Source: a virus. Taken from it: DNA of 64,000 nt. The notes below the pieces were generated by a model. The model was not told where the DNA came from. It ran no database searches and saw nothing but the letters and a program-made list of their open reading frames with translations. Below, piece by piece: positions 18,699-52,295 of the stretch. The stretch is from the IMG/VR virus record IMGVR_UViG_3300037247_000655, positions 64,001 through 128,000 of that record; one strand, written 5' to 3'. How positions within the stretch are numbered: position 1 is the first letter of the stretch; every line of letters starts with the position of its first letter. The translations under genes were made by a program, and so were the position numbers.

Positions 18699-19421
18699 GT
18701 GAAAAGAAAACCCCTGCTGAGAAACGAAGATGGCTGGATAATAAATATTTGTACAGACTGTGGTAAGACGAGGCTTTCTCGACAAAAGAAACTAAAACCA
18801 TTATGTAAAAGTTGTGGCATAAAGAAAAGTTTCGTATCTAGACCTGCCGTTGGGCTTAAAACTCTAGACAATATGGATAAAATAATAATAGAATATAAAT
18901 CTGGTAGAAGTCTATTGTCTCTTGGTAAACAATATGGTGTCTCGGCAATGACAATCAGGACTAAGATTATCGATCTTGGCTGTGAAACAAGACGTCCTCC
19001 AGAGATCTCTATCCGATTAGGTACTATATCAAAGGCACATGAACGCATTAAAGAAATGTGTAAAACAGGTGAATTCCAGCGGAATAGAAGTGCAATGTTA
19101 CAAGGCGTTACAATAGAAGAATGGAAAGGTTTCATAACACCAGAGAACAAGCGACTAGTTGCTAGCCCAGAATATAAACAATGGCAACAATCAGTATTCG
19201 GCAGAGATAATCGTATTTGCCAACTGTGCAGTAAAACAAAATGCCCGATAGCGGCCCATCATATTTATCCTAAAGCCAAATATCCAGACATGGTTTTAGA
19301 TGTTGATAACGGCATAACACTGTGTGATAAGTGTCATCACAAAACAATTGGCAATGAAGATAAATATATAAACTTATTTACTTCAATACTCTTTGGTGGC
19401 TTATGTGGCAAAAAACGATAG
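18699..19421 (+). CDS. HNH endonuclease with N-terminal Zn finger/HTH
   Basis: CTDC..CKSC; VFGRDNRICQLC...AHHI...NGITLCDKCH. Confidence 0.85.
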   Translation: MKRKPLLRNEDGWIINICTDCGKTRLSRQKKLKPLCKSCGIKKSFVSRPAVGLKTLDNMDKIIIEYKSGRSLLSLGKQYGVSAMTIRTKIIDLGCETRRPPEISIRLGTISKAHERIKEMCKTGEFQRNRSAMLQGVTIEEWKGFITPENKRLVASPEYKQWQQSVFGRDNRICQLCSKTKCPIAAHHIYPKAKYPDMVLDVDNGITLCDKCHHKTIGNEDKYINLFTSILFGGLCGKKR

Positions 19422-19717: not shown

Positions 19718-20074
19718 ATGATACAAAAAAGGCACACATTCTACGGTATCTGTGGTACTATACTAGGCGTTATTTGTGGCATAGCTGGTACTGCCTTTTC
19801 TCTTGGCGCAGATAGCCAAGCTACACTGAACTCTATAGTAAAGAATGATTCAGCGATAACAGACCTTAAAACAGCAGATATCAAACATGAAACATCAGTT
19901 CAAAGAGAAATGGACAGATACGTTGTAGTTATAACAGCTCAAATGACTGGTATACAAGAATGTATATCTAATCTCACAGAGACTGTAGGAAAGTTGCGCA
20001 CTGATGTCCAAGTACTAAAGGCTATAATTGAACGTGTTGAACAGAATATACAAAACAGGTCTGATCACGACTAA
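19718..20074 (+). CDS. Membrane-anchored coiled-coil protein (possible holin-type)
   Basis: N-terminal hydrophobic helix then heptad-rich C-terminus; last gene of + arm. Confidence 0.45.
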   Translation: MIQKRHTFYGICGTILGVICGIAGTAFSLGADSQATLNSIVKNDSAITDLKTADIKHETSVQREMDRYVVVITAQMTGIQECISNLTETVGKLRTDVQVLKAIIERVEQNIQNRSDHD

Positions 20075-20544
20075 TGCCACCTGTATATAACTTCTATTGC
20101 ACGACGCAAAAGAACACTCAGGACACAAGCTTCTCCGCTACTAATTGAATGATGGATCACATCCTGGGCATCACCCCTCTTTGTGCTCAGTCTAATATGA
20201 AATCGACCACCTTCATTCTTGTCAAAACGCAGAATAGCGTTGCCCTTTTCGTTTGAGTGATATAGGCCCTTATATCTGCCTGATTGAGTATCTAAAGAAC
20301 CTACCCCAGCCTGCAACCCGACGAGAGTCGCAAGAATCTCGCCTATATCGGCTATACCTAGCTTGAAGATTAGCTTGCTGTCCCAATCAAACCTGGCATT
20401 GTTGTTACTGTCCTTGCCATCCTGGCTAGCCATTTCTAAAAAGACACAATCTCTTTTAGACCCCAGACTCCACTGAGAGGCAGCACCTTGGCCATCGTTC
20501 TTAGCTTTGTATAACATATATTGTTCACTGAACTTATCTGACAT
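20071..20544 (-). CDS. Whirly-like ssDNA-binding protein
   Basis: YMLYKAK..AA, FLEMA, FDWDSKLIFKLGIADIG, LYH, IRLS, ISSGEACVL, C-terminal RWH align by eye with the plant Whirly domain (SIYKGKAA, LLQFA, YDWSKKQVFSLSVTEIG, FFH, FNLS, ITRAEFAVL, GWH). Confidence 0.7.
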   Translation of the reverse strand: MSDKFSEQYMLYKAKNDGQGAASQWSLGSKRDCVFLEMASQDGKDSNNNARFDWDSKLIFKLGIADIGEILATLVGLQAGVGSLDTQSGRYKGLYHSNEKGNAILRFDKNEGGRFHIRLSTKRGDAQDVIHHSISSGEACVLSVLLRRAIEVIYRWH

Positions 20545-21488
20545 TATTTACTATCCTTTTCTGAGGCCATTTCTCTCATTCTCGAAGAAGTAGCAACTGC
20601 GTCCTCATACGACAATGACTTCAAATTTACTTCGCCAGTCTGGTCATTCAATTCATATTTCATACCCATGCCATCCAAGATTTCTGTGATTTTAAAATCA
20701 TGGCGATCGGCCATCATTCTAATGAGTGTAATCTGACCAACATGTATTTTCCCACCAGGCTGGACATCATCCACAGCCGCCATCGTTTTACTTACTTCCT
20801 CTGCGGCCACCACACGCTTGAGAAAAAGTGCATTACGATACATCCTGCCCTTGGCTCTAGTGTCAGCCATGGCAACCAAATACGTCGCATAATCTTCCAG
20901 ACAGTTATCGCTGTGGGCATCCGCAAGGGCTTCGAACCTTTTGGTTCTTCCCTCTGGTGTAATAAATACACCCCATGCTTTGACACATGCACGGAATCTA
21001 TTTTCTTCTGTCGGAGCTGCGATCAGATCGCATCCTTCCTCTATTAGCTCACCGACAAGTTCGCAAGCCACCCGTCTAAGACCTTCAACTCGTGGGTTAC
21101 TCCCATCTACTTCATCTTGAAGGAATTTCCCTAGTACATACTGGGTCCATTCGGGACTACTGGGAGTCGGTGGATCAGTCTCTTCTAGTTCTGGTTCATC
21201 CGTATCCGAGTCCGAGTCCTTTATGTAATCTTTTGCGTCTGGCAAACCACCATTAATGACAGTCTCGACGTCACTATCTCCATCACTACTATTCTCTGCA
21301 ATGTTACTCATGACTTCCAGCCCTTCTTCTCCCTTGTTGTGTTCTTGGAGTTTTTCGCACAACGCAGGCCTCTTCAATTTATACCCTTTTCCGTCTAGCA
21401 ACTGTTCCTGCGTATATCCTAGACCAATCAACGTGTCCCTGAGTTCTTGGGCCTTCATCTTAGTGGGCGGATTGGTTTTGTCTGACAT
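20544..21488 (-). CDS. Rad52/Sak-like single-strand annealing protein
   Basis: GLRRVA...AMADTRAKGRMYRNAL...AAEE motif resembling Rad52/22-type SSAPs; acidic linker. Confidence 0.6.
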   Translation of the reverse strand: MSDKTNPPTKMKAQELRDTLIGLGYTQEQLLDGKGYKLKRPALCEKLQEHNKGEEGLEVMSNIAENSSDGDSDVETVINGGLPDAKDYIKDSDSDTDEPELEETDPPTPSSPEWTQYVLGKFLQDEVDGSNPRVEGLRRVACELVGELIEEGCDLIAAPTEENRFRACVKAWGVFITPEGRTKRFEALADAHSDNCLEDYATYLVAMADTRAKGRMYRNALFLKRVVAAEEVSKTMAAVDDVQPGGKIHVGQITLIRMMADRHDFKITEILDGMGMKYELNDQTGEVNLKSLSYEDAVATSSRMREMASEKDSK

Positions 21489-22068
21489 TTTTCATCTCCG
21501 TTATGACTAATTTGGCTAACATTTCCGCATTAAAATCGGGAATTATAGTGTCGCACACTTGAACTCCAAATTCTTCTTCTATCAATGACTTATGAGACTC
21601 ATGTCTTACCACTACCTTGATCCTGGGATCACAAAATGCCAATTTCATATCAGACGGATCGATGCATGGCTTGTCTATGAATTCTGGATCAAATGCATAA
21701 TGGTAAATAACTGGAGCGTTACTCGCCAAAGCATCTATCGTGGTCCCTATGCTAGTTGAAATCAGCGGGTCTTCCTTCCATCTAGTAAGCTCTGACACAC
21801 TGAATACTGGGTATAGCGGTGTGACACACGGAGGTATAATATGTTGGGCAAAAACACATATGTCCACACCAGCGCACGTCTTACATAGCTCATTCATAGA
21901 CGTAAGCCCAAGATATGTTAAATGCGACACAGCAAGATGACTAAAGACAAAACCTAACACGGATATATCGTCATCCAGGCTAAGACCTATTCTACCAACC
22001 TCTTTCGACGCCTGGGTTTTCCTCATTGTTGCGTCTTTTTGTTGAGTGTTTTTGTTCCTCTTAGTCAC
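21460..22068 (-). CDS. Hypothetical protein, possible GT-B N-terminal half
   Basis: 202 aa alpha/beta ORF at end of glycosyltransferase cluster. Confidence 0.5.
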   Translation of the reverse strand: MTKRNKNTQQKDATMRKTQASKEVGRIGLSLDDDISVLGFVFSHLAVSHLTYLGLTSMNELCKTCAGVDICVFAQHIIPPCVTPLYPVFSVSELTRWKEDPLISTSIGTTIDALASNAPVIYHYAFDPEFIDKPCIDPSDMKLAFCDPRIKVVVRHESHKSLIEEEFGVQVCDTIIPDFNAEMLAKLVITEMKNVRQNQSAH

Positions 22069-25099: not shown

Positions 25100-26278
25100 C
25101 TATTCAGTCAAAAGACCCTTGGCTATCATCCCCACTTTGGGATAGCTGAATTCAGCCGCACGTCGTTTTGCAGCATCTCCCCTAATACTCAATTTGTCGT
25201 CTTGCCACGCCGTATATGCGTGTTTCATACATTGAATCAGGGCTTTTATGTCTGGGTCAAACCAGAATTCGTCCCCGGTGTATAAATCAGGGAAACTGTC
25301 AACCATACCAAAACATGGTGTTAACTGTCCATTAACTAGCCAACCACAATTAATACGTGGACACCATCTAAACCGTTTACTATCTGAATCCCAGTCTCTC
25401 TGAGTTGTTTTTATTGTTAGTTCTGGGAAAGAACCCCAGTTGCTCAGAATCACAGGATTACAAAAGCCCATAGCATCGTGTGCTGGGATACCCCAGGCTT
25501 CCCCATGGGATGCCGAAACAAAAACATCACCTGTCACATGGATTTTATCTAGTTCATTTTCAGAAAGAAAGTTGGTCATACACACTACTGGCGGATAGTA
25601 TGGGTGCCTTATGTATATATGTAAAGACTTCTTGATGTCCTGGATTGTGGTTCTTAAGATATTAATTGCTTCGTCTGATTTCTTACCTGGTACATTAGTT
25701 TTGATAACCAAAACAACATCATCTCGAAGACTAAATGCACTATAGAATGCTCTCAAAACTGCTACTATATTTTTCCTCCGAGTCATTTCCCCTATAGTAT
25801 AAAAAACACACTTATTTTTGAATTCTGGTGAATCAATGGGTTCCGGAGGATTGTCGAATCTTTTTATATCACATGCACATGGTAAGATTTTTACTGGTAC
25901 CGTAACACCACTGTCTTTCGCAGCCTGCGCATTCTGTAGAGATGGAACCCATAATTCGTCCATAAGATTGCAACAATGTGCCCAGTTTGATCTACTAAAA
26001 TGAGTTGTCTCCCAACACATCATACCAATATTTTTTACCCCAGCTTTGTATTCGAACTGATGAGGTAAAACGTGTTGAATTACTACCGATACGTTGTCAA
26101 CAGATTTCTTTTCTAGATGTTCTACTTTTTCCGCTAGTTCAAGATTGCTGCTTGGAGATAGTTTTATTGCTCTAGCAACAACATCGATGCCACCAGCTTC
26201 CATAGCCAACATATTATGCACAGCTTGGTTACTATACCCAGTACCATCACGAAATACAGATAAATAAGCAACCTTCAT
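25100..26278 (-). CDS. Glycosyltransferase family 4 (GT-B)
   Basis: DGTGYS; RRKNI; DVFVSASHGEAWGIPAHDAM. Confidence 0.88.
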   Translation of the reverse strand: MKVAYLSVFRDGTGYSNQAVHNMLAMEAGGIDVVARAIKLSPSSNLELAEKVEHLEKKSVDNVSVVIQHVLPHQFEYKAGVKNIGMMCWETTHFSRSNWAHCCNLMDELWVPSLQNAQAAKDSGVTVPVKILPCACDIKRFDNPPEPIDSPEFKNKCVFYTIGEMTRRKNIVAVLRAFYSAFSLRDDVVLVIKTNVPGKKSDEAINILRTTIQDIKKSLHIYIRHPYYPPVVCMTNFLSENELDKIHVTGDVFVSASHGEAWGIPAHDAMGFCNPVILSNWGSFPELTIKTTQRDWDSDSKRFRWCPRINCGWLVNGQLTPCFGMVDSFPDLYTGDEFWFDPDIKALIQCMKHAYTAWQDDKLSIRGDAAKRRAAEFSYPKVGMIAKGLLTE

Positions 26279-29199
26279 TACATCACCACCATACTAATTT
26301 GTCCAGGATCTGCTTTCTTGAGAGAAGATGTTCTTTTCTCTTCAACTACATTAGCCTGTTGCACAAGTCCCATGAAATGCTCAACTAACATCTTGCGATC
26401 AAACGGTACTCGCCTATCTCCAACGGTCCGTGATCCACTATTGAGAGCCTTAAGCCATTCACCGGAAAAATGAGTGTGTAACATTTCTGGGTGATTCCAA
26501 ACCTTGCCTATAACCCAATTGATAAATTCACTATTGTTCATATTGTTGCTAGGAGGTGTCAAATTTGGATTATGAAGACGAGCTGTGGGGCATAGCCAGG
26601 TTTCTGTCTGATCCTGAATTTTGGTTTCACGGATAACTTGTCCCCAGATAGCCGCTGTTCTTTCCCATCCCCTTCTTTTCATGGGTAATTCCTGTCCGTA
26701 AGTTGCAACTGGTTCTTCTATATACGCTCTGGTTTGTTGCATCTTCGTGTTTCTCGCATCTTCGCTAAGTTTGAGAAAACGATCCATTTTTCTGACAAAA
26801 TCGTCATTACTAGGCAAAGCCCTTCTTTGTTCAGTTTCAATAATAGCTTCCCAAAAGAATTTATGTACTTCTATTGGAATAGAGGTAGGATTATCCAAAT
26901 GGTCTTCCATAGCAGAGTATCTCACCGCCATAGTAGGTACGCCACAAGCCTGAGCCTCAGTTAAGGGCATACCCCAGCCCTCACACGTAGAATACTGCAC
27001 GTACAAATCGAAAGACTTGATGATGTCTGCTAACACATTCCGGGGGCACGAATGACTCGCATTAGGCGGATGCGCAGCTAATTTGCCACACTTACGACAA
27101 ACCATGATTTCCCCAGAGAAAAACGATGGATAAGCAGTGTTGCACTCGCTACATAGATATGTCATTATGACCTTGTTGCCTATTTTGAAATCACGAATAG
27201 CTTTCGCTATGTCATAACCAACATCAGGGTAACTAGTATGTAAGTAAAGAAACGTTTTCCTTGCCAACTCCGTATGTCCCTTGGATGTTGATCGATTAAC
27301 CCACATGGCAAACGCTTCTATCAAGTCGTAGTACAACTTTCGTTTTTGATTCCGCATTACGGTTCCGACAATAAGAGAATTAGGATCTATGCCAAGTTTT
27401 TGTTTGTGTTCTCTTTTATTGTCTGGTGGTTTGAATACGTCTAGGTCTGCGCCAGGAGATGCTATAGTTATAAGATTAGTTCCTTTCCTACCGGTTTTTT
27501 TTAATAGCTGCATACCATACTTAGAGTACGTAAGAATACGATCGCACTGCTTGTATGAATCTAACCAAAGCTCTCTCTGCGGCTCCCCATCGATTGTTGG
27601 CATCCATATAAAAGAAAAATTATGACGCACAGAAGAACGTAGTATAAACTCGTCCATCCACCAATCTCGAATACTGCAATTGTGAACACTGAACCCCGTT
27701 ACATAGCTATTATCTTGATCTACTTCTAGGTTATAAACTTGTCCATGATATTGTTCTGTTCGTATCCGCCGAATCGGAACAACTATGTAATCATCTTCGA
27801 TCCATCCAATACCTCCTTTGTCTATCCATTTTGGATTAAGAGATTTTCTCGACAAAAGTTCTGACTGTTTGTTAATAAACTCATGTGCCAAACGGGCTGA
27901 TTGACCATAACATTCTACATCGAACGACAACCTTTCTGTTTTGACCAATTTCGAAGGTTTATTGATCTTCCACATTATCGACGCCTTAACCCCTATTCTC
28001 GCAAACAGCATTCGTACTTGTCTTGCCAAGGTTTCAGAAACAGTGCTCAATGAAACCGTGTCAGGACCGTAATATCCATCGCCCTTAATTAACCCCTCTA
28101 GAAATGACTGGATTAATTCGATATCATTTGATTTCCAAATACAATCTGGTATTCTTTTATTGTGTGCGCCACAACCAACCATCTTCCCCATTAATTCTTT
28201 GATAAGAACAGAACAACATTTTACTGATTGACCATTTGACACTTTTGACTTCACCACGGAAGTAGACAGCCCAAATAAATCCTGTATTAGTGATTGTACG
28301 TCTTTGACATATTCGTTTTCCTTTATGGTAATGCCAAAATCGAGACTAATAGAATTACCAGAGTTTGAGCCTTCTGCGCAATAGTAGCCCAGTAGTCTAG
28401 CAAAACGTTTAGTTATATGGATGTACTTGGGTATGCCGTGGTCTTTTTTGTAATCCTGGTGCCCTGCTGGGTAAACCTTCGTGTCTATATTATCATAGAT
28501 AAATTGATCAAAGTAACAGGTTGTATCTAAAACATTTGACCGCTCTTTTTCGGGACGATGAATGGGAATTAGAACATAATCACCGGAAGACAAGTTTCGT
28601 GCTTCCACGAACTTCGCGTCATCAACAGAATGTCTGTCTCTAACATCTCTTTGTTTCCAAGTTCGTTTCTTACTTTTAATCACTAGGATTGGATGTTCTG
28701 GTGTAAAAGTATAACATTGATTGTCATTGTGTGGATAAATCTTAACAACATCACCTATATGTTGCCGTCTCGTAATATCTAAAACTTTTCGAGCTTTCCC
28801 CGTATGGGAAATAACTAATTCACCTTTTTGAATATCCTCTATATTTTTTACACCACTTGGCGTTTCCACTTTCGTCCCAGGAGGAACACATACTATATCA
28901 GGCTTAAAATCGAGACATACATCATCAAATATTCCTTCGCCGAATTGATTGGTAGGATTAGCCTGATACTTTTGCATAGCCTGCTGGTCACTCCTTGGCG
29001 GCGCAACTGGATAGAACTTCCAAGGAACTTGACTACACCGTTGATCGTCTGCGTGGGCGTAAGAACCCATTTCCGCAATTTCGAATTCGTTAGTTGCATG
29101 CAGTCTTTGAATAACTTCGTTCCAATAGGTACTAAATCCAGTAGCGAGATAAGACGCCTCACCTGTAAACAAAACACGGCGTTTGCGATTAGATTCCAT
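26278..29199 (-). CDS. Intein-containing glycosyltransferase family 4
   Basis: TGFSTY N-terminus; VMRNQKRK; DLYVQYSTCEGWGMPLTEAQACGVP; internal CxxC..CxxC; interrupted by intein. Confidence 0.88.
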   Translation of the reverse strand: MESNRKRRVLFTGEASYLATGFSTYWNEVIQRLHATNEFEIAEMGSYAHADDQRCSQVPWKFYPVAPPRSDQQAMQKYQANPTNQFGEGIFDDVCLDFKPDIVCVPPGTKVETPSGVKNIEDIQKGELVISHTGKARKVLDITRRQHIGDVVKIYPHNDNQCYTFTPEHPILVIKSKKRTWKQRDVRDRHSVDDAKFVEARNLSSGDYVLIPIHRPEKERSNVLDTTCYFDQFIYDNIDTKVYPAGHQDYKKDHGIPKYIHITKRFARLLGYYCAEGSNSGNSISLDFGITIKENEYVKDVQSLIQDLFGLSTSVVKSKVSNGQSVKCCSVLIKELMGKMVGCGAHNKRIPDCIWKSNDIELIQSFLEGLIKGDGYYGPDTVSLSTVSETLARQVRMLFARIGVKASIMWKINKPSKLVKTERLSFDVECYGQSARLAHEFINKQSELLSRKSLNPKWIDKGGIGWIEDDYIVVPIRRIRTEQYHGQVYNLEVDQDNSYVTGFSVHNCSIRDWWMDEFILRSSVRHNFSFIWMPTIDGEPQRELWLDSYKQCDRILTYSKYGMQLLKKTGRKGTNLITIASPGADLDVFKPPDNKREHKQKLGIDPNSLIVGTVMRNQKRKLYYDLIEAFAMWVNRSTSKGHTELARKTFLYLHTSYPDVGYDIAKAIRDFKIGNKVIMTYLCSECNTAYPSFFSGEIMVCRKCGKLAAHPPNASHSCPRNVLADIIKSFDLYVQYSTCEGWGMPLTEAQACGVPTMAVRYSAMEDHLDNPTSIPIEVHKFFWEAIIETEQRRALPSNDDFVRKMDRFLKLSEDARNTKMQQTRAYIEEPVATYGQELPMKRRGWERTAAIWGQVIRETKIQDQTETWLCPTARLHNPNLTPPSNNMNNSEFINWVIGKVWNHPEMLHTHFSGEWLKALNSGSRTVGDRRVPFDRKMLVEHFMGLVQQANVVEEKRTSSLKKADPGQISMVVM
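27679..28890 (-). mobile_element. Intein with LAGLIDADG homing endonuclease in GT4 gene (404 aa)
   Basis: Begins CVPPGTKVETPSG, block B FTPEHPI, LAGLIDADG-like LLGYYCAEGS and FLEGLIKGDG, ends VYNLEVDQDNSYVTGFSVHN; +1 residue Cys. Confidence 0.93.
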
Positions 29200-29779
29200 A
29201 ACCACTCCTCATGAGTTTGGGACGTAAATTCCTGGTTCGCAACCATCTCTGTTTTCTACTGAGACCTAGCTTGTTGATCTGTCCATCCATCTGTGACACA
29301 ATCATATCCTTATCTTCTTTAGTCAAGTTAATAGACGACAAAATATCTGATAGCACGGAAAACGGATCAATGGTATCAACAGGTTCTACAAATAAAGTTT
29401 GCCAAGACTGTGGGTGGAGCATAGATCTAAGGACTTCTAGTTTAAGCCCTGTTATCTGTAGTTGTTCACAGATCTCGTGGTCATTCTTGCCTAAACCAGA
29501 AAGCATTTCAACCTGATGAATCTGTCTCTTTACTCTGCATGGTGCAGAGACCACGCACATCGCCCCCAAAGCAGTGTCTCTCATCGCACGAGCTATAGAT
29601 ACTATCGCATAGGCAGTGAAGTTATTCTTATTATGTCCCCCAGCTTTAATCTCTGCTAATTTGAGATGTCCAGCTTGTATATAATCTTCTGCATCCGCGC
29701 AACTATTGTTATAGGCAGCATCTATTTTTATAGCGAAATAAGATATAAACTTTTCTAGTGTCTGTTCTGCTTCCTGCAT
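29189..29779 (-). CDS. Sigma-70-like factor (regions 2-4, divergent)
   Basis: AEDYIQAGHLKL...NFTAYAIVSIARAMRD region-2-like; EICEQLQIT HTH-like. Confidence 0.65.
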   Translation of the reverse strand: MQEAEQTLEKFISYFAIKIDAAYNNSCADAEDYIQAGHLKLAEIKAGGHNKNNFTAYAIVSIARAMRDTALGAMCVVSAPCRVKRQIHQVEMLSGLGKNDHEICEQLQITGLKLEVLRSMLHPQSWQTLFVEPVDTIDPFSVLSDILSSINLTKEDKDMIVSQMDGQINKLGLSRKQRWLRTRNLRPKLMRSGYGI

Positions 29780-30207
29780 TAGAATGGGACACTGGGATCG
29801 TTAGTGGGAGCCTGAGCACTTGGTTCAGCTACTTTGGTCGCCTGTGCTGGTTGTGCTTCATCGCTGTTTTTAGCGGTCTTCACACACAACTGAAAATCAC
29901 GGACATTCAAAGAATAGGCGACCCTCTTTTGACCACTATCCTTGTCTTCCCAGCTATCTTGTTTAATATATCCATTGACGTAAATAGGCTGGCCCTTCTT
30001 GACTAGTTCAGACATCCTGGTTGCCTTAGCACTCCATACCTGCGCCCTCATAAAACAGGGTTCGTTCTGCCACTGATCATTATTATCCTTATAACTACGA
30101 TTAAAAGCCAGGTTGACAGTACAAACGGGCGTTTTCTTCTGTCCAACGAACTTTAGCTCCGGATCTGCAGTTGCAACACCAACACCATTAAAACTTAACT
30201 CTGCCAT
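29779..30207 (-). CDS. ssb: Single-stranded DNA-binding protein
   Basis: DPELKF...LAFNRSY...KKGQPIYVNGYIKQDSWEDK; C-terminal VPF tail. Confidence 0.95.
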   Translation of the reverse strand: MAELSFNGVGVATADPELKFVGQKKTPVCTVNLAFNRSYKDNNDQWQNEPCFMRAQVWSAKATRMSELVKKGQPIYVNGYIKQDSWEDKDSGQKRVAYSLNVRDFQLCVKTAKNSDEAQPAQATKVAEPSAQAPTNDPSVPF

Positions 30208-30283: not shown

Positions 30284-32152
30284 TTATAATAATTTTTGTA
30301 TATTCTTAACAATAAAGCTGCCCTTTCTTTTATCCCCGTAAACAAGACAGATAACATCATCTTTACATAATCCCCTAAGCTTGGAAAATACGTCGGGGAA
30401 GACTACCGCGTGATCCACTGAATACGTAGAATCTGACATAGTCAAGAAACACATTGGCTTACCGGGATTCTTACCTCTTTTTGTTTTAGTATGTTTCACA
30501 CTATCTATTATGACACACACAACAATATCATCCTGATTAGTAGCCTTAGCTATATCTAGGCAGGTATGTGTGGCAAGTGTTTGGTCTGCATCGTCGGCCT
30601 GAGAACAAGAAAGGGCGATTCCAAGAAAATACTTCTCCGCAGTAGCATTAGCCATGTTTGTATCCTTCAGTGGACTTTCTGTCATGGCGGCTTTCCTGGC
30701 CATCATTGTCCGTCTAGCATCACTGGCACACGGTGGTTTGACGACAATATCTCGATATCCATTGTCTAGCATTAGTTTTTCTAATTTCTTCTTAGTCCGT
30801 CCCCCTAGTTCGGACAACCACGACACTTTCTCTTCACTTGAAGTATATACAAATTTACTGTCCCCATCTGTGATTCCGTCAAAAGCAACATCGGCTTGGT
30901 CCAAGTATTCCTGTGTAGCTTTTACCAATTCACCCTTGGTCATTTGCTTGATAGTTTTTGTTTTGCATCCAGCAGGCTGGGACATTTGTAGTAATATTTC
31001 CTGTGTAGTCATCTCACCAAGTTCCAGTTGATTGAAAAAATAAACTTTCTCTTTACCGGTTAGACCCTTTACTTCTACTTTTTTGCCAGATTCGTCATGA
31101 ACAGAAGTCCCCAGTATTACTTCAAGTTCTCTGACCATCTCACTACGCTCCATACCGTAGCAATCGCACGCACCTGACTTAATTAAAGCTATTCCAACAT
31201 TTCTGTGAAAATCAGGGACAGAGGCCAAAAAGCCACCCCAAGTTCCCAAACATGGACTAGATACTTTTAAAGGGTCCATTCCTGGCGTTTCTGTGGCCGC
31301 TGAGACGATCTTCTTGATAGCCGAGGCACCAACACCCCTAATATGCGCCAGGCCAAAAGCTATGCCATTCTTTGTTTTTTCTGCCATCGTAAAATGTGTG
31401 TTTCCACTTCTGATGTCAGGAGGTAGAATTTCAACACCGAATAACCTGGCATCCTGTACTAATTTGTAAATCTCCTCCTTAGGATCACCCTTATAACTAG
31501 AATATGTAAGGTAACTTGTGAAGAACTCTCTAGGAAAGTGGCACTTTATCCAAGCAGTTTGGTATGCAATCAGACCATAACTTACAGCATGGCTTTTATT
31601 AAAACTGTAGCGTTGACATTTTTCAATCCAACCAAAGATTTCTTCAGCTACTTCTAAGTCAATCTTGCCATATTCTTGGGCACCTTTGATAAATTTAGAC
31701 TTTACTTTAGCCATAAGCTTAGAATCCTTTTTACCTATAGCTTTTCTCAGCGTATCGGCACTTTCGGGACTAAGACCAGCCAAGTCGGTAGCTATTCTCA
31801 GCGCTTGCTCCTGATACACCATCTGGGCGTGAGTAGATTCTAATATCGGTTTTAAGGCGGGATGTAGATAAGTTATTTTTTTCTTTCCAAACTTAACGTC
31901 GACATAGGCTTGACTGAGCCCACTTTCAAGTGGACCTGGACGTAAAATACTCACTAACGCAGCCAATTCTTCTATACTATCGGGCTTTAATTTCTTTGAC
32001 CAATCTTGACCAAGATTTTTTTCAAGCTGGAAGACTCCAACAGTATTACCACTAGCCAGAAGCCTCCATACGGCAGGGCAATCCAAGTTGATGTTGTTGA
32101 TATCGAACTTACCCCTGTCTACGCGACATTTACAATTAGCGAACTCTATCAT
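30284..32152 (-). CDS. dnaE: DNA polymerase III alpha, C-terminal half (fingers, HhH, OB)
   Basis: TVGVFQLE, ILRPGPLE, MVYQEQ, YSFNKSHAVSY, LPPDI, GLAHIRGVG, LIKSGACD, EKYFLG, OB fold MCFLTMSD..AVVFP. Confidence 0.92.
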   Translation of the reverse strand: MIEFANCKCRVDRGKFDINNINLDCPAVWRLLASGNTVGVFQLEKNLGQDWSKKLKPDSIEELAALVSILRPGPLESGLSQAYVDVKFGKKKITYLHPALKPILESTHAQMVYQEQALRIATDLAGLSPESADTLRKAIGKKDSKLMAKVKSKFIKGAQEYGKIDLEVAEEIFGWIEKCQRYSFNKSHAVSYGLIAYQTAWIKCHFPREFFTSYLTYSSYKGDPKEEIYKLVQDARLFGVEILPPDIRSGNTHFTMAEKTKNGIAFGLAHIRGVGASAIKKIVSAATETPGMDPLKVSSPCLGTWGGFLASVPDFHRNVGIALIKSGACDCYGMERSEMVRELEVILGTSVHDESGKKVEVKGLTGKEKVYFFNQLELGEMTTQEILLQMSQPAGCKTKTIKQMTKGELVKATQEYLDQADVAFDGITDGDSKFVYTSSEEKVSWLSELGGRTKKKLEKLMLDNGYRDIVVKPPCASDARRTMMARKAAMTESPLKDTNMANATAEKYFLGIALSCSQADDADQTLATHTCLDIAKATNQDDIVVCVIIDSVKHTKTKRGKNPGKPMCFLTMSDSTYSVDHAVVFPDVFSKLRGLCKDDVICLVYGDKRKGSFIVKNIQKLL

Positions 32153-42249: not shown

Positions 42250-44609
42250 TCTTGCACCTCTTTGAATTCTTCGTCTAACACAGAATCTGCTGATTCTCCA
42301 TTAATTAGATCCATCGCTTTCCATAGCTTATCCAACGCTACGACCCCCAGAAAATCGAATTTCACCGCCCCCATAGCTTCTGCATCAGACATCTCTAGAC
42401 CGACAACTCTATCTTTATTTTTGGCATCATAAACCATTGGTACAAGTTCTTCTATGGGCCTATCTGCTATAACGACACCAGCAGCATGTTTTGATTGTGA
42501 TTTTTTAGTACCTTCGATTCTCATAGCCTGATCAAACAACGGCTTATACCACTCGTAAGCATCTTTTACTTGTTCAATATGGTGTATCGCCCATTGTAAG
42601 ATACCATAATCGTCACCATGATCTTCTCTTGCTTGCCTTAACTCATCAGATATAGACGCCTCATCAGGTATATGACGTGTAATATCGTTACATAAATCAT
42701 GGGGAGTCATACATATATCATCTGCGTTCTTTCCCTCTTTGATTGATTTCACTTTCATAAGATGCTTGACAGTATCTGGATGAGCACGGAACACTTCTTT
42801 CAAAGCTGCTTTACCCTGGAGTCTTCCGAACGTAATCATTTGCGCAACGTATTCTTCACCCCATCTCTTTTTCAGATACGTAATGACTTCGTTGCGAAAC
42901 ACAACCCCTATATCCGTATCAATATCAGGAAGGCTAATATGACCCTTATGGATAGTTACATCTTTGTTGGTGTCCAATTCACAAGATTCAACTATTGTTA
43001 TACCAAGACCATGTGCCAAATGTGAGTTAGATGGATTAGTAGACGGCTTCTCTTTGATCATATCAGCCAAGTACATCCACATACGAGAATTATTGGCATC
43101 AATCCATTCAACTTCCTTCCTCATCATATCCGTAAACACCACGGGGTCAAATGGATCTTTACAATATTGTTCTATTCGTCCAGCCAGGTGAAGAGAGACA
43201 TATTTCCTGTCTGAGTCTATATCCCTTGTGTGTAATAGTTCAAAGTTATCAGACATCCAAGACATGAAACTAGTATGCCCGACATCAAAGTGAGGTGGTA
43301 TGTTACGACTCATATTATAGAATCTTTCAAAATACAAACCGTATTTGATCGGATCTATTCCTGTTATTCCTGTTAGATAATTGATAAGTGATCCTGCTCC
43401 AGAACCTCGTCCCTTGCCTCTTGGTCCGTTGGATTCGTCTACGAACTTACATGCATCCCAAACTATAAGAAAATAATCTGCTAATCCGGCCTCTTGGATG
43501 ACTATGAGTTCCCTTTTTAATCTTTTCCAATATGTAGCCTTTTGTGATTGATCAAGATGGGACAACTTTTCCTTAGCACCTTCTATACACAGGTGTTTGA
43601 GATATTCTATAGAATTCATGCCAAGTTTTTTAGACTCATCATTTGTAAAAATTGGCAAATACGGATTATGGCCAAGCGATGAGTATTCTATACGATCTGC
43701 TATGTCTAATGTCGCTTGCAGTTCTGCTTCCGTAAATGTCTCCCGCATTTCTTCGTATGACGGTATATAGTACTTATCAGAAACAAAAAAGTCCATTACA
43801 TCTTGGCCGGTGGAGATTTTGTAGTCTTGCGCCTCTTTTGTTGTATGGAGACTTGCATACAAAAGCAATCGTTGGTCCTCAGCATCTTCTTGTCTACAAT
43901 AATGGGCATCAATGGTGGCGACTGTGGGAACACCAGTTTCTATACTTAGCTCACGGAGACATTCGACAACCACAGTTTGAATTCCCATCGATTCGTCCTG
44001 TAATTCTAAATAATAATTGTCTTTTCCGAATATCTCTATATGCTTTTGAATTATTGCTTTGCCAACTTCTAACCAATCTGGTTTTAGATACTTTCTAGCC
44101 TCAGCAACATTGTGATTACGACCAGCCATGATAGCTTCTTTAAAATCTATAAACAGCTCCATAGATAACTCCCCTGCGATGCACGCAGTCAGGAATATGA
44201 GATTTCTACGTTTTGCGAATTTAGCTATGCCAGTCAGATCTATTCTAGGTTTTCGATAGAAGTGGTCCGGTTTATTAGTTTCAGATACCAACCGCATTAA
44301 ATCTTCGATTCCTTGATCGTTTTTAGCAAGAACTATTAAGTGATGTCTTTTGTTGTTGGCGTTGTTTTTTATAGTTGGGTCTTGTTCACAGACATATAGT
44401 TCACATCCGATAATGGGTTTGATTTTTGCTTTTCGTGCTGCATCATAGAATGTCTTCATACAGCTTATATTTCCATGGTCTGAAATTGTGCAAGCAGGAA
44501 GTCCCAACTCAACACATCTGTTAACTATGTCTTTTGGTGAACAAAGTCCGTCCAATAAACTAAAGTATGAATGTAAATGAAGTGGGACATATGTTTTTGT
44601 ATTATTCAT
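42234..44609 (-). CDS. dnaE: DNA polymerase III alpha, N-terminal half (PHP, palm, thumb)
   Basis: LHLHSYFSLLDG, SDHGN, IGCE, TIDAHY, GRGSGAGS, FERF, PDIDTD, SKHAAGVVI, KFDFLG; ends shortly after KFDFLG. Confidence 0.93.
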   Translation of the reverse strand: MNNTKTYVPLHLHSYFSLLDGLCSPKDIVNRCVELGLPACTISDHGNISCMKTFYDAARKAKIKPIIGCELYVCEQDPTIKNNANNKRHHLIVLAKNDQGIEDLMRLVSETNKPDHFYRKPRIDLTGIAKFAKRRNLIFLTACIAGELSMELFIDFKEAIMAGRNHNVAEARKYLKPDWLEVGKAIIQKHIEIFGKDNYYLELQDESMGIQTVVVECLRELSIETGVPTVATIDAHYCRQEDAEDQRLLLYASLHTTKEAQDYKISTGQDVMDFFVSDKYYIPSYEEMRETFTEAELQATLDIADRIEYSSLGHNPYLPIFTNDESKKLGMNSIEYLKHLCIEGAKEKLSHLDQSQKATYWKRLKRELIVIQEAGLADYFLIVWDACKFVDESNGPRGKGRGSGAGSLINYLTGITGIDPIKYGLYFERFYNMSRNIPPHFDVGHTSFMSWMSDNFELLHTRDIDSDRKYVSLHLAGRIEQYCKDPFDPVVFTDMMRKEVEWIDANNSRMWMYLADMIKEKPSTNPSNSHLAHGLGITIVESCELDTNKDVTIHKGHISLPDIDTDIGVVFRNEVITYLKKRWGEEYVAQMITFGRLQGKAALKEVFRAHPDTVKHLMKVKSIKEGKNADDICMTPHDLCNDITRHIPDEASISDELRQAREDHGDDYGILQWAIHHIEQVKDAYEWYKPLFDQAMRIEGTKKSQSKHAAGVVIADRPIEELVPMVYDAKNKDRVVGLEMSDAEAMGAVKFDFLGVVALDKLWKAMDLINGESADSVLDEEFKEVQECETK

Positions 44610-45555
44610 TATCTACTCCCGGTTTTCCAATTGCTAGCTGCTGTTCGTATGTCAACTTGGCATATTTGTTTTTCACAAAGTCTCCTCCAGAAGTATGTAA
44701 ATCGCTCCACACCCTATCACAGATACCATTGCGACCGAAAGAACACATCTTACAAGACCAGTGCTTATTTCTTCGTATCAACGTATCGTTCTTTACAGTT
44801 CTTAAAAAGTCATAGAGAAACTCGACGGTACCAATAAGATCATTGCGAGATAATGCAATTGTTATTGGGCCACCACTATTAGCATAAAAGAAGGTGATAA
44901 TTATATTCTTGTATTGTGGATAAAGAAAGAATGCTGCTAGGTGGTATAGTCTAGGTTGTACTTCTCTCATCAGAACTTTTTCGTCAATTGGTTCCTGTGT
45001 ATGAAAATTTGTTCTATTACCAGATTTCCAGTCTATTATTTCTAAAGTATCTTTGTCTATTTCACGGGTTAGATCAATGAAACCTCGCACAGTAAACTGT
45101 TTCTCTTCTCCTTCATTATTTGAGCATTTCCATTCTTCTCCAGGCATCTCCAGAGAAAACCATTGTTCTGCTTCTAATACATCTACTAAATAGGGATTAT
45201 AAAATTCATCAGCAAGTACGGTCTCAAGAGCAACTCTACACTTCTTGAAGTCAGCAGCTTCCTTTAGGGCACCAGTTTCTCTATCTACACGAGTAGTAAC
45301 TTTCCTGATCTGTATTTCTGGAGAATTTTGAGTGTGCTCGTCCCATGCTCTATTCAGCAACCACATCGGATCAACATTGGTTTTGCCACGTTTTTTTAGC
45401 CGAGCCATCCATTCCAGAGCCTGATGTATGATGCTACCCTGAAGAGCCGCCTTACCAGTTTTAGATTCTAGACCTAAAAGGTAATGCAGATAATAAGCGA
45501 ATTGGCAATGATTATATGTCCCAATTGCACTAGAGCTACATCTTACAATTTTCAT
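44602..45555 (-). CDS. PD-(D/E)xK exonuclease (Cas4/AddB-like)
   Basis: SSSAIGTYNHC..GSIIH..RGFID..IIDWKSG..QPRLY..CKMC..C. Confidence 0.85.
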   Translation of the reverse strand: MKIVRCSSSAIGTYNHCQFAYYLHYLLGLESKTGKAALQGSIIHQALEWMARLKKRGKTNVDPMWLLNRAWDEHTQNSPEIQIRKVTTRVDRETGALKEAADFKKCRVALETVLADEFYNPYLVDVLEAEQWFSLEMPGEEWKCSNNEGEEKQFTVRGFIDLTREIDKDTLEIIDWKSGNRTNFHTQEPIDEKVLMREVQPRLYHLAAFFLYPQYKNIIITFFYANSGGPITIALSRNDLIGTVEFLYDFLRTVKNDTLIRRNKHWSCKMCSFGRNGICDRVWSDLHTSGGDFVKNKYAKLTYEQQLAIGKPGVDNE

Positions 45556-50259: not shown

Positions 50260-50781
50260 TTATGGGTTAATTCCCATCATTATACAATGAATGTATTCAA
50301 GCTCGTCCGAGATAAGACCTTTATCCTTAGGTATCCACCTAACTACTTCTATGTCTTGATTTTCCAACATATCCTTTACGACCTGATTGACATCTTCCAG
50401 TTTTGCATCAGTATATAATCCACTTTGTGATGTAGTAATAGGTCCATACACTACTCGCTTAATACCCTTCTGAATAATATGAGCCCAACAGTGAGTACAT
50501 GGAGGTCCACTCACATACAAAGTAGCATCTTCCAAATCTCCAGTAGAATTTAGTATTGCATTTTCTTCTGAATGCAATATAGGAGGATATTTTTCTGGTC
50601 GCATCTGTGGCATCTTATCATCATTGACACCCCTAGGGTAACCGTTATATCCTTGGCCAACTATACATCCACGACTATTTATAATAACACAACCACATTG
50701 GGTACTTGTATCTGGACTTCGTGTCTTAGCCCAAATAGCTTGTACCATAAAATAGTCGTCCCAGCAAAGTCTAGTTCTCAC
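50260..50781 (-). CDS. dCMP deaminase
   Basis: WDDYFM, RSPD..TQCG, GYNGYP, HSEENAI, PCTHC; GTG start after AAGGAGG. Confidence 0.92.
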   Translation of the reverse strand: MRTRLCWDDYFMVQAIWAKTRSPDTSTQCGCVIINSRGCIVGQGYNGYPRGVNDDKMPQMRPEKYPPILHSEENAILNSTGDLEDATLYVSGPPCTHCWAHIIQKGIKRVVYGPITTSQSGLYTDAKLEDVNQVVKDMLENQDIEVVRWIPKDKGLISDELEYIHCIMMGINP

Positions 50782-51832
50782 TATTATTGTCCTCCTTAGG
50801 TAGAACCACATCTCTAACTTCTTTTTCCAATAATTGTAATTTATCAGGGTTGTCTCTAAGAAAATTGGATAACCTTGCCAATCCCTGGAACTTCGGTGGA
50901 TCACCATCATCTGCGAACATAGGTAATGAGTACCAAGATCCAGCCTTCTCTATTAATCCAAGATTTTCCGCAGTAGTCACAATATCCCTTATAACATCAA
51001 TACCAAAACCATATCTCAATGGTAATATGCACGGAAGAAGAGGTCTGCCAAGCGCAGATGACTGTACAGTAATATGCATGTCGTGACCGTCAGAAGTATT
51101 GGTTTCTGCGTTGCGTTCCCATTGTTGTGTCCACGTTACCTTCAACCACACAGAACACGCATATTGTATAGCCACCCCGCCCTTCTCTACAAATTTTGGA
51201 CCACGTGGTTCCCTACTGGTCATTAGCTGGGATATAAAAATCAGTATTACATTTTTTGAATCAACGATTTGTTGGGCACGTCTAAAGAATGCAGACAACA
51301 ACTTGGCTGGTCCAGCCATGTCTCTACTAGAACCAATGTCGTCCTCTTGTTCTGTCATGGTTGATAAAGCAGCAATGCTATCAATGACAACAACTGCCTT
51401 CTCTTGGGTCTTGGCGATCCGTTCTATAATGTTTAGGTAGTCTTCTGCTGTCAATGGCTTGTCTATATGATGAGGAATGACCTTGAGCTTAGCTGGATCT
51501 AGACCGTGGATAGTGGACAATAACGCAGGAGTACATCTTCGCTCTATATTTATATAGTAGGTTGGTCTGTTAAGTTCTTGTGCATTTCTGAGCAATTCTA
51601 AACATAATGTAGTTTTTCCAGACTTTGCTTTTCCGGTTATCAAACAAATCGTTCCATCAGGGATCCCACCGTTTAGGGCAATGTCTAGCGACAACGGGGT
51701 GTGAAGAATATCTCTGGTACATGGAGGCAAAGCCTTTTCTGCCGTGGCTATAATACCATGGCCATGTATTCTAATCAAAAACTCATCCAAGGATTCATCT
51801 GCAATCTTTGCTTTTGTTTTTGTCTTAGCCAT
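50771..51832 (-). CDS. recA: RecA/UvsX recombinase
   Basis: SLDIALNGGIP; GKAKSGKT; VVIDSIAAL; FISQL; GGVAIQY; GLIEKAGSWY. Confidence 0.92.
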   Translation of the reverse strand: MAKTKTKAKIADESLDEFLIRIHGHGIIATAEKALPPCTRDILHTPLSLDIALNGGIPDGTICLITGKAKSGKTTLCLELLRNAQELNRPTYYINIERRCTPALLSTIHGLDPAKLKVIPHHIDKPLTAEDYLNIIERIAKTQEKAVVVIDSIAALSTMTEQEDDIGSSRDMAGPAKLLSAFFRRAQQIVDSKNVILIFISQLMTSREPRGPKFVEKGGVAIQYACSVWLKVTWTQQWERNAETNTSDGHDMHITVQSSALGRPLLPCILPLRYGFGIDVIRDIVTTAENLGLIEKAGSWYSLPMFADDGDPPKFQGLARLSNFLRDNPDKLQLLEKEVRDVVLPKEDNNSEN

Positions 51833-52295
51833 TCTCTTCATCTCTTATCTTAGCAAGTGCAGTTTTTCTTCCTGTATCAACAAACGTAGCGTTCTTTTTG
51901 TTGTCTATTTCGGTGTGTTGCTGTCTTTTGGATAATTCTAAACGTTGTGCAGTCAAAGATTCTACACGGTTATTCGTCCACCGCACTATCGTTGCTATTG
52001 TCTTCTTGGCAACAAGCGCTTTTATATTGCGTTCTCGGATTATCTCTACCAAAGCTCTCCGTAATAGGGCGTCAGAAAGATTCAATTCTTTTCCTAGGTT
52101 GGTTACTCCTCTTATTTCTCTCCCATACTTAGGTCCCCAATATTTCTTATCAGACCAAAATCGTGGACCAATCTTTGGATTAACATTCATACACACCAAT
52201 TCTATTATGTAGTCTCTGAATGTGACATATAATCCAGGCGTAGTAGGAGAAAGGTAAGGATGTTTTTCGCTTTTTGGTTGATGCCTTATTGCCAT
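51825..52295 (-). CDS. Hypothetical protein
   Basis: 156 aa basic ORF in tightly packed operon. Confidence 0.65.
   Translation of the reverse strand: MAIRHQPKSEKHPYLSPTTPGLYVTFRDYIIELVCMNVNPKIGPRFWSDKKYWGPKYGREIRGVTNLGKELNLSDALLRRALVEIIRERNIKALVAKKTIATIVRWTNNRVESLTAQRLELSKRQQHTEIDNKKNATFVDTGRKTALAKIRDEENG

Follow-up and report, generated by a model that had tools for sequence, protein, structure and literature searches.

Whirly proteins are regarded as plant-specific guardians of organelle genomes. The plant organellar Whirlies, WHY1, WHY2, WHY3 and potato PBF-2 p24 (entries 4kop, 4koo, 1l3a and 3n1h), are built on a two-repeat β4-α fold. They bind ssDNA without sequence specificity and take part in recombination and repair in organelles together with ODB1, a Rad52-like protein (PMC6981420), and they stimulate the strand exchange performed by organellar RecA (bioRxiv 10.64898/2026.10.24.761589). 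The PC4/Whirly superfamily also includes phage proteins that bind single-stranded nucleic acid. ChmC of jumbo phages consists of a β3-α repeat, lacks sequence similarity to Whirlies, has a preference for RNA and is involved in mRNA handling (PMC11077065). The PC4-like protein of phage T5 is a single-repeat dimer of the PC4 type and has been implicated in recombination-dependent replication (PMC7549692).

Single-strand annealing proteins (SSAPs) of the Rad52 structural superfamily, including human and yeast RAD52, the Sak proteins of phages 80alpha and ul36, Mgm101, P22 Erf and lambda Red-beta, possess a core composed of a helix, three strands and a basic helix. In RAD52, the basic residues R55, K152, R153 and R156 line the ssDNA groove. 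SSAPs form modules with cognate SSBs, such as Sak-SSB of 80alpha, Sak4-SSB of HK620 and the C-terminal domain of Red-beta acting on the SSB tail, and in such modules the two genes are adjacent and co-oriented. The C-terminal domain of Red-beta binds both lambda Exo and the SSB tail, as seen in the solved entries 8tfu and 6m9k.

The window analysed in the present study, a stretch of 64,000 nucleotides, belongs to the 165.5-kb genome of an uncultured tailed phage known from metagenomes alone. It contains two minus-strand ORFs encoding proteins of 157 and 314 aa (Table 1), which probably constitute a translationally coupled recombination module consisting of a Rad52-superfamily SSAP and a Whirly-family ssDNA-binding partner. 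The pair appears to represent a novel type of recombination module among phages. The interpretation of the locus as a Whirly plus SSAP module, proposed in the earlier note, is supported, and the checks of fold and of conserved pairing that were open to computation all came out in its favour. The separately encoded SSB and RecA that the same note mentioned were both located by Pfam matches. The 157-aa gene is the final gene of a long minus-strand transcription block; a scan for promoters and terminators around the pair yielded nothing above the shuffled expectation, and no terminator was detected after the Whirly gene.

Table 1. Features of the Whirly and annealase-like locus and related genes, in positions of the window.
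Feature	Position	Strand	Basis
Whirly-family ssDNA-binding protein gene (157 aa)	20071..20544	-	ORF, Pfam PF08536, AF2, VIA
Rad52-fold annealase-like (SSAP-like) gene (314 aa)	20544..21488	-	ORF, AF2, Foldseek, VIA, BFVD
Small N-terminal helical domain of the SSAP-like protein, residues 1-65	21294..21488	-	AF2 helices
Acidic, length-variable disordered linker of the SSAP-like protein, residues 66-100	21189..21293	-	pLDDT, alignment
Rad52-like annealase core, residues 103-230	20799..21182	-	VIA matches, invariant arginines
C-terminal helical domain of the SSAP-like protein, residues 245-314	20547..20756	-	pLDDT 86-93, VIA
Translational-coupling junction, AAGGA then TAATG	20542..20558	-	Sequence
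Upstream neighbour orf202 (202 aa)	21460..22068	-	Family HMM
Canonical OB-fold SSB	29779..30207	-	Pfam SSB, E 3.1e-22
RecA-family recombinase	50771..51841	-	PF00154, E 6.2e-25, above family cut-off
PD-(D/E)XK nuclease	44602..45555	-	Pfam PDDEXK_1, E 8.7e-19

The 157-aa protein is a true member of the Whirly family. All the Whirly motifs quoted for it earlier are present in the translation, namely YKAK..GAAS, FDWDSKLIFKLGIADIGEIL, YH, RLS, ISSGEACVLSVLL and the terminal RWH. The Pfam model PF08536 matches the protein with 16.9 bits (E 0.0058, profile positions 28-133 of 136), which is below the curated cut-off of 23 bits. The same model matches 34 of the 35 homologues at E <= 0.01 (best 3.5e-7), and a precomputed PF08536 match exists for several of them. 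In the opposite direction, the family profile of the phage protein matches plant WHY2 (4kop) with E 0.003 over the motif FDW..K..F.L...[DE][IV]G and over the C-terminal helix, which ends in W. This motif, a histidine after the linker and the C-terminal tryptophan are common to the plant and phage proteins.

The AF2 model of the 157-aa protein (pLDDT 92.8) has the topology β4-α-β4-α, the two-repeat fold of the plant Whirlies. The structure searches placed plant Whirlies closest, which bears out the fold suggested before: Foldseek matched WHY1 and PBF-2 with E 5e-7, and VIA aligned 131-133 residues of WHY1, WHY2, WHY3 and PBF-2 with Z 16.8-18.1, rmsd 1.9-2.2 A and 17-23% identity. MRP1/2 reached Z 16.1-16.6 in VIA, and the next fold after Whirly/MRP was PURA, with Z 8. 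The resemblance to Whirlies is far beyond chance. Unlike the T5 protein, the phage Whirly has two repeats and is detectable with the plant Pfam model.

Several features distinguish the phage protein from its plant relatives. It has no transit peptide, ends directly after the second helix at 157 aa, and translational coupling links its gene to that of an annealase. In place of a contiguous KGKAAL motif, which is absent, the sequence reads YKAKNDGQGAASQW (YKAK-x5-GAAS), and the consensus of the phage family is YKA.N.G.GAASQW, with K-x-K and AA separated by a five-residue insertion. KGKAAL is a motif of higher-plant Whirlies, where the second lysine is needed for the 24-mer (PMC3245945), and it is missing in green-algal Whirly-like proteins as well (PMC9070903). 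By analogy with the plant proteins, the phage Whirly most likely forms a tetramer. No PHROG family exists for this protein, and the blastn and tblastn searches of 50,697 GenBank phages returned no match for it. A scan of prokaryotic genome contigs for the Whirly family found no copy, with a sensitivity that was low because a single peptide pattern was used.

As judged by its predicted fold and genomic context, the 314-aa protein appears to be an SSAP belonging to the Rad52 structural superfamily. The AF2 model (pLDDT 77.6) contains H134-144, E147-157, E167-176, E182-191 and H200-220, that is, a helix, three long β-strands and a long basic helix, the arrangement of the Rad52-type fold. RAD52 was the best PDB match in Foldseek pdb, VIA wide and pdb_via; the scores of human RAD52 against the core were moderate (VIA Z 8.2-8.8 over 113-116 residues). 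It was first in the exhaustive VIA search (Z 8.2, 116 residues), and it accounted for the entire top ten after VIA re-alignment (Z 7.5-8.8). Further VIA matches of the core included Sak of phage 80alpha (Z 7.3, the alignment covering 106 of 128 residues), Mgm101 (Z 6.3) and the N-terminal domain of Red-beta (Z 5.8). Unrelated dsRBD-like α-β3-α domains scored about 1-1.5 Z below RAD52 for the same core. Among viral models, the BFVD search gave 34 matches at E <= 1e-3, and the named ones, reaching E 1e-5, were Rad52/59/22, ERF, RecT and 'DNA single-strand annealing protein'.

The sequence AMADTRAKGRMYRNAL, quoted in the earlier note for the Rad52/Sak-like gene, is present in the 314-aa translation. 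The long basic helix of the core carries the invariant pattern A.TRA..R..R..L.L. Residues R138, R139, R211, R215 and R218, numbered as in the window protein, are invariant or nearly so across the broad annealase-like family. The end-point offset of the alignment with 8ril (model 147-224, chain 85-162) would place R215 and R218 near RAD52 R153 and R156, and the aligned ranges suggest that the invariant arginines lie on the helix after the sheet, as in the DNA groove of RAD52.

The claim of Rad52/Sak-like affinity stands for the core fold; at the level of sequence, no link to the Pfam families Rad52, Sak or ERF was found. The 314-aa protein has neither a Pfam nor a PHROG match. None of 71 family members matched Pfam Rad52, Sak, ERF, RecT or Mgm101 at E <= 0.01 or recombinase PHROGs at E <= 0.001, and the family profile found nothing among PDB sequences at E <= 10. 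The hhalign comparison of family alignment A4 with a Sak alignment of low diversity (Neff 1.8) aligned the basic helix alone and was not significant (E 0.08), and neither was the comparison with 80alpha Sak as a single sequence.

Compared with the known Rad52-superfamily SSAPs, the 314-aa protein has an additional N-terminal helical domain and an acidic linker, and its family, separate from theirs, is large (about 1,970 clusters at 50% identity) and unannotated. The N-terminal domain (helices 13-22, 27-30 and 40-65, pLDDT ~88-90) is conserved in alignment A2 and absent from many shorter family members. It showed no significant family or fold match; the Pfam RuvA_C hit (E 0.43) was too weak and was disregarded. 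In the linker, pLDDT is below 50 at residues 65-100, and the corresponding A2 columns are highly gapped and rich in D/E. The C-terminal domain, like that of Red-beta, is a separate helical domain and matches the latter in VIA (Z 6.0-6.1, 59-61 residues). The helical arrangement is a common one and the match is weak; the domain may serve to bind a partner.

A homologue of the 314-aa protein was found in a cultured phage, as gp49 of Paenibacillus phage API480 (hhalign probability 97.9%, E 5.6e-13). It was reached through the single weak match that the window annealase gave in blastn and tblastn searches of the 50,697 GenBank phages. The genes flanking API480 gp49 are annotated as host-nuclease inhibitor on one side and as SSB on the other. 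In Rossellomorea phage phiT1, gp34 carries the annotation 'DNA repair and recombination protein', which likewise speaks for the annealase identity.

The two genes of the window are translationally coupled. The 314-aa gene ends with a stop codon at 20546-20544, and the 157-aa gene starts with ATG at 20544-20542, so one base is common to both genes. The junction reads TAATG, in agreement with the overlap reported before, and an AAGGA ribosome-binding site is located at 20558-20554. The 314-aa gene directly precedes the gene of a putative ssDNA-binding protein, as the sak gene of 80alpha directly precedes ssb, and the orientation of the two genes is the same, as in other SSAP and SSB modules. Unlike in those modules, the partner has the Whirly fold and not the OB-fold, and the OB-fold SSB is encoded separately, 9 kb away.

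The adjacency is conserved. The annealase gene is immediately upstream of the Whirly gene in all 23 IMG/VR phage loci found via the latter, and 8 further pairs were found among more distant annealase loci, which answers the question of conserved pairing raised in the earlier note positively. Among the 23 loci, protein identity is 34-67%, and the pairing persists where the flanking genes differ. The distance from the SSAP stop to the Whirly start is within -38 to +12 nt in most of the 31 related loci, and the annealase tree has Whirly-paired members on several of its deep branches. Of 106 loci searched with the orf202 family HMM, 90 have an orf202 gene upstream of the one for the SSAP-like protein, either adjacent or with one 260-aa gene between; orf202 has no Pfam match and no PDB sequence match.

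Most annealase-like genes of the wider family are paired with a zinc-ribbon protein and not with a Whirly: at 72 of 82 distant loci it is a zinc-ribbon protein that occupies the downstream slot. This protein has generic zinc-ribbon Pfam matches only and no PDB relative. The Whirly gene was not found in five complete genomes of the zinc-ribbon type, and a zinc-ribbon homologue was not found in the phage of the window. In API480, the same slot is occupied by an ordinary SSB. The blastn and tblastn searches of the 50,697 GenBank phages gave no match for the zinc-ribbon-type annealase, and PHROGs contain no family for the distant pair members or for the 71 annealase-like family members.

On the basis of gene order, translational coupling and analogy with the described modules, we infer that the two proteins are functionally coupled, acting as an annealase and a dedicated ssDNA-handling partner. 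The PD-(D/E)XK enzyme of the phage, or a similar nuclease, is a candidate for resecting a DNA end. The Whirly would then coat and unfold the exposed single strand, protecting it and disfavouring pairing over short microhomologies, which would give it the role that a cognate SSB performs beside other phage annealases. The annealase, with its putative DNA groove at the basic helix, the extra N-terminal helical domain, the acidic linker and the C-terminal helical domain, would pair long complementary strands, a step required in recombination-dependent replication, in the formation of concatemers and in the repair of breaks. RecA of the phage is a possible second client that the Whirly might also assist. 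A role of the annealase in circularising a terminally redundant genome was considered and dropped: the 'direct terminal repeat' of the record is exactly 127 bp long, which looks like an assembler k-mer overlap, and thus points to a circular assembly and not to a physical repeat.

The position of the Whirly gene could reflect operon packing and not partnership, the protein acting alone as a chaperone of nucleic acids in general or as a regulator. Possible roles would be mRNA handling, as for ChmC, RNA annealing, as for trypanosome MRP1/2, or nucleoid compaction together with transcriptional control, as for plant WHIRLY1/p24. This explanation is unlikely, though it has several observations on its side. 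Proteins with the Whirly fold include binders of RNA and of DNA, ChmC being a phage example of the former (PMC11077065), and MRP1/2 fit the model nearly as well as the plant Whirlies do, the latter having Z of 17-18. The phage already encodes an OB-fold SSB, so the Whirly need not be the partner of the annealase. In addition, all Whirly-annealase pairs come from one broad, syntenic phage group, so the adjacency is partly inherited gene order and not repeated independent association. The prediction of a complex between the full 314-aa protein and the Whirly (score 0.00, mark 0.32) has no bearing on binding either way. Partnership is favoured over mere packing by the survival of the stop/start overlap and of strict adjacency through the observed divergence and the changes of flanking genes, as well as by the slot itself, which is otherwise filled by the zinc-ribbon protein, or by SSB in API480, the Whirly and zinc-ribbon partners being mutually exclusive in complete genomes. 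Besides, the sequence similarity of the phage protein is to plant DNA-repair Whirlies, whereas ChmC has no sequence similarity to any known protein.

Two further explanations change the role of the 314-aa protein or the purpose of the pair. It is rather improbable that this protein is not an annealase but another nucleic-acid binder with a dsRBD-like α-β3-α core, such as a factor that initiates replication or melts the origin, the Whirly then stabilising the melted strand. The dsRBD and ribosomal S5-like domains, with Z 6.5-7.2, score just below RAD52, and a sequence-level link to known SSAP families is lacking. The gene lies within a block of replication and modification genes, and gp34 of phiT1 has an annotated replication protein on one side and a helicase on the other. 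However, the RAD52 alignments span the core far more fully than those of dsRBDs (about 70 residues), five different Rad52-superfamily proteins are among the matches, annotated Rad52, ERF and SSAP proteins dominate in BFVD, and the API480 order of Gam-like inhibitor, homologue and SSB is a classic recombination arrangement. For some defence systems of hosts, the trigger is a phage SSB or recombination protein. A counter-defence device, in which a non-OB ssDNA binder and a divergent annealase replace the SSB and SSAP sensed by the host, would be consistent with the change of class in the partner slot and with the strong divergence of the family from known SSAP families. This explanation is very improbable: the locus has no pointer to defence or counter-defence, canonical SSB and RecA are retained by the phage, and the pair is old and stably inherited, not sporadic. 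A translationally coupled recombination module is the preferred reading.

Several organellar replication proteins are thought to have come from phage. The phage pair of Whirly and Rad52-like proteins might be the source of, or sister to, the plant-organelle system of WHY and the Rad52-like ODB, an origin that we consider rather improbable at present. If it is true, the green lineage acquired its 'plant-specific' Whirly family from a phage, and the phage module would be a minimal working model of how a Whirly steers annealing away from microhomologies. The searchable literature contained no description of a phage family that is detectable by the plant Whirly model and hard-wired to a Rad52-fold annealase.

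The locus brings to light a very large annealase-like family annotated by neither Pfam nor PHROGs, with a partner slot that cycles between Whirly, zinc-ribbon protein and OB-fold SSB and represents both a natural experiment on the demands that an annealase makes on its ssDNA-binding partner and a possible source of new recombineering pairs. The locus also provides a simple system of two proteins for studying how a Whirly modulates strand annealing, and a concrete candidate for the provenance of the plant Whirly family.

In the complete virus record (165,526 bp, of which the window covers bases 64001-128000), the annealase-like and Whirly genes come at the end of an extended run of minus-strand genes for replication, recombination and glycan modification. 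The 157-aa Whirly gene is the last of these and converges with a plus-strand gene, meeting its 3′ end; a scan around the pair found no terminator-like hairpin after it. The two genes are translationally coupled: the stop of the 314-aa gene and the start of the 157-aa gene have one base in common within TAATG, as the overlap described in the earlier note implied, and 9 nt 5′ of the junction there is a ribosome-binding site, AAGGA. The motifs quoted in that note are all present in the translations, and SSB and RecA are indeed encoded apart from the pair. On its convergent side, the Whirly gene is closely followed by an HNH endonuclease gene, found in some relatives only (loci L006, L014 and L030, with a remnant in L003), which is the pattern expected of a mobile homing endonuclease.

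Features of the window and parts of the 314-aa protein model
Feature	Position	Strand	Remark
HNH endonuclease gene	18699-19421	plus	
Whirly gene	20071-20544	minus	ORF, 157 aa
Annealase-like gene	20544-21488	minus	ORF, 314 aa
orf202	21460-22068	minus	no Pfam or PDB sequence match
Glycosyltransferase gene with intein	26278-29205	minus	GT1/GT4-type
SSB	29779-30207		separate from the pair
DNA polymerase III alpha, part	30284-32152	minus	
DNA polymerase III alpha, part	42234-44609	minus	
PD-(D/E)XK nuclease	44602-45555		
RecA	50771-51841		separate from the pair
314-aa protein, N-terminal small helical domain	residues 1-65		model
314-aa protein, acidic disordered linker	residues 66-100		model; length variable
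314-aa protein, core	residues 103-230		model; helix, three long strands, long helix
314-aa protein, C-terminal helical domain	residues 245-314		model

The Pfam Whirly model (PF08536) matched the 157-aa protein nearly end to end, with a score (16.9 bits, E 0.0058) that falls short of the curated cut-off. The protein has 113 metagenomic homologues (42-94% identity), and the same model matched 34 of 35 aligned homologues at E ≤ 0.01 (best 3.5e-7). Compared with PDB sequences, the family profile picked out plant Whirlies alone (WHY2, E 0.003), and the alignment with WHY2 takes in both FDW..K..F.L and the C-terminal helix with its final W. The confident AlphaFold model (pLDDT 92.8, pTM 0.86) has the order beta4-alpha-beta4-alpha, and the top Foldseek matches were WHY1, PBF-2, StWhy2 and trypanosome MRP1/2 (E about 5e-7 to 1e-5). 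Re-alignment gave Z 16.8-18.1 with plant Whirlies (rmsd 1.9-2.2 Å, 131-133 residues, 17-23% identity), Z 16.1-16.6 with MRP1/2 and only 8.2 with the next fold, PURA. The contiguous KGKAAL of higher plants is absent, the protein having YKAK, five residues and GAAS instead; this motif is also missing from green-algal Whirly-like proteins (PMC9070903). Judging from profile matches and the predicted structure, the protein is a Whirly, and the domain assignment of the earlier note is borne out.

The 314-aa protein gave no match in Pfam and PHROG searches, and its model (pLDDT 77.6) comprises four parts. Foldseek against the PDB placed RAD52 first, weakly (E 5e-3), and also listed Sak and Mgm101. 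In an exhaustive search of 48,161 chains by VIA structure alignment, human RAD52 ranked first for the core (Z 8.2, 116 residues), and the matches also included 80alpha Sak (7.3, 106/128 residues), yeast Rad52 (6.7), Mgm101 (6.3) and the Red-beta N-domain (5.8); on re-alignment, RAD52 made up all top ten entries (Z 7.5-8.8). Among predicted viral structures, 34 matched the model at E ≤ 1e-3, the named ones being Rad52/59/22, ERF, RecT and 'DNA single-strand annealing protein'. However, dsRBD-like domains reach Z about 7 against the core, and because this margin under RAD52 is small, the Rad52-type fold predicted for the core is held as supported but not proven. The gene's designation as Rad52/Sak-like is supported as regards the fold, with RAD52 on top in both structure searches, but not as regards a sequence link: the family profile found zero matches among PDB sequences, and hhalign against Sak stayed below significance, aligning the basic helix alone. 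The modelled C-terminal domain gives a hint of resemblance to that of Red-beta (VIA Z 6.0-6.1), which is seen in solved entries bound to lambda Exo and to the SSB tail.

The annealase-like core belongs to a very large family without Pfam or PHROG annotation (alignments A3 and A4). Its profile matched 1,968 representative clusters (50% identity) among 1.84 billion proteins at E ≤ 1e-3, and 1,356 at E ≤ 1e-10, while 0/71 sampled members match a relevant Pfam or PHROG family. GLRR in the first helix and A.TRA..R..R..L.L in the long helix are invariant. One weak tblastn match of the window's annealase led to gp49 of Paenibacillus phage API480, which profile alignment establishes as a true homologue (hhalign probability 97.9%, E 5.6e-13). 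Its neighbours carry the annotations 'host-nuclease inhibitor protein' on one side and 'single-stranded DNA-binding protein' on the other, the classic surroundings of a phage annealase. Its relatives in Rossellomorea phage phiT1 (gp34, annotated 'DNA repair and recombination protein') and in Bacillus phage 0305phi8-36 (gp18) each lie amid replication genes; gp49, gp34 and gp18 are the family's cultured members. In a distant relative (L016:5126-6005), the gene consists of two ORFs, an 80-aa N-terminal one and a 218-aa one with the core and C-terminal part, which would be a natural split or else the result of a frameshift.

The pairing proposed in the earlier note is conserved in related genomes. 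A Whirly-family scan of IMG/VR gave 23 loci (34-67% identity), all 23 with the annealase-like gene immediately upstream, and the pairing persists in a distant Whirly group, though downstream genes and glycosyltransferases are not in common. Among 83 distant annealase-like loci (80 from a scan, 28-49% identity to the query, and three fetched through protein look-up), a Whirly gene lies downstream in eight. In 72 of the 82 with any ORF in that slot, it is occupied by a conserved zinc-ribbon protein of 108-125 aa (L027-L108, e.g. L037:4642-5007 and L058:4711-5058; alignment A6), with CxxC ... CxxC and a C-terminal LFPKRKD..G..L.N.GW.KW motif. Its Pfam matches are to generic zinc ribbons only, and no PDB relative was found; it is a candidate for a new ssDNA-binding or accessory partner. 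The two partners are mutually exclusive where checkable: the Whirly gene is absent from 5/5 complete zinc-ribbon-type genomes, and a zinc-ribbon homologue from the window's whole record. Both types mostly start a few bases from the annealase stop. In a FastTree phylogeny of 87 annealase-like proteins, members with a Whirly partner are spread over several deep branches, and zinc-ribbon-paired ones fall into two well-supported large clades. Parsimony gives 4-5 partner changes, 1-2 of them forced by well-supported branches; no direction of change is claimed because the tree is unrooted, with long branches.

The orf202 family lies upstream of the annealase-like gene, adjacent or one gene apart, in 90/106 loci, and may be a third module member or the final gene of the glycosyltransferase cluster. 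A protein of ~260 aa is encoded directly upstream of the annealase-like gene in 77/82 distant loci (e.g. L017:4302-5078 and L028:3217-3999), too regularly for a roaming homing endonuclease; it is similar to HNH endonucleases (phrog_559, E 1.4e-14) and carries a helix-turn-helix-like region at its N-terminus, and the window's lineage lacks it at this site. Elsewhere in the window, DNA polymerase III alpha is encoded in two halves, PHP+NTPase and finger+HhH, with ~10 kb of genes of the glycosyltransferase, methyltransferase, radical-SAM and sugar-kinase types between them. A glycosyltransferase gene is broken by an intein that includes a LAGLIDADG endonuclease domain (matches to Hint_2, Intein_splicing and LAGLIDADG_3). 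The 'direct terminal repeat' at the ends of the full record, outside the window, is exactly 127 bp, the usual largest assembler k-mer, and therefore probably reflects a circular assembly rather than a true repeat at the termini.

It is well established that a phage annealase gene can adjoin the gene of an ssDNA-binding protein, as in phage 80alpha, where ssb follows the Sak gene in the annotated order. In plants, Whirly tetramers cover ssDNA and hold back microhomology-mediated repair (PMC3245945); plant Whirlies also share a pathway with the Rad52-like ODB1 (PMC6981420) and stimulate organellar RecA (bioRxiv 10.64898/2026.10.24.761589). What the sequences and models show are folds, family relations, translational coupling and conserved adjacency; from this arrangement and these plant roles, we infer ssDNA binding, annealing and contact between the 157-aa and 314-aa proteins. 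The phage Whirly would coat resected ssDNA, the candidate resection enzyme being the PD-(D/E)XK nuclease, and would hand the strand to the annealase or render it selectively available; the annealase would then pair long homologies in recombination-dependent replication and repair. Phage RecA may be a second client of the Whirly.

Whirlies have been described as plant-specific (PMC9070903). From phages, two members of the wider PC4/Whirly superfamily are known: the jumbo-phage RNA binder ChmC, which resembles Whirly in structure only (PMC11077065), and the T5 PC4-like protein (PMC7549692); unlike the present family, neither is found by the plant Whirly model or paired with an annealase. Full-text searches turned up no paper linking a Whirly to a phage annealase. 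The module of annealase and ssDNA-binding protein is of a known kind, and a Whirly as its partner appears to be new; it is possible that the plant Whirly is of phage origin.
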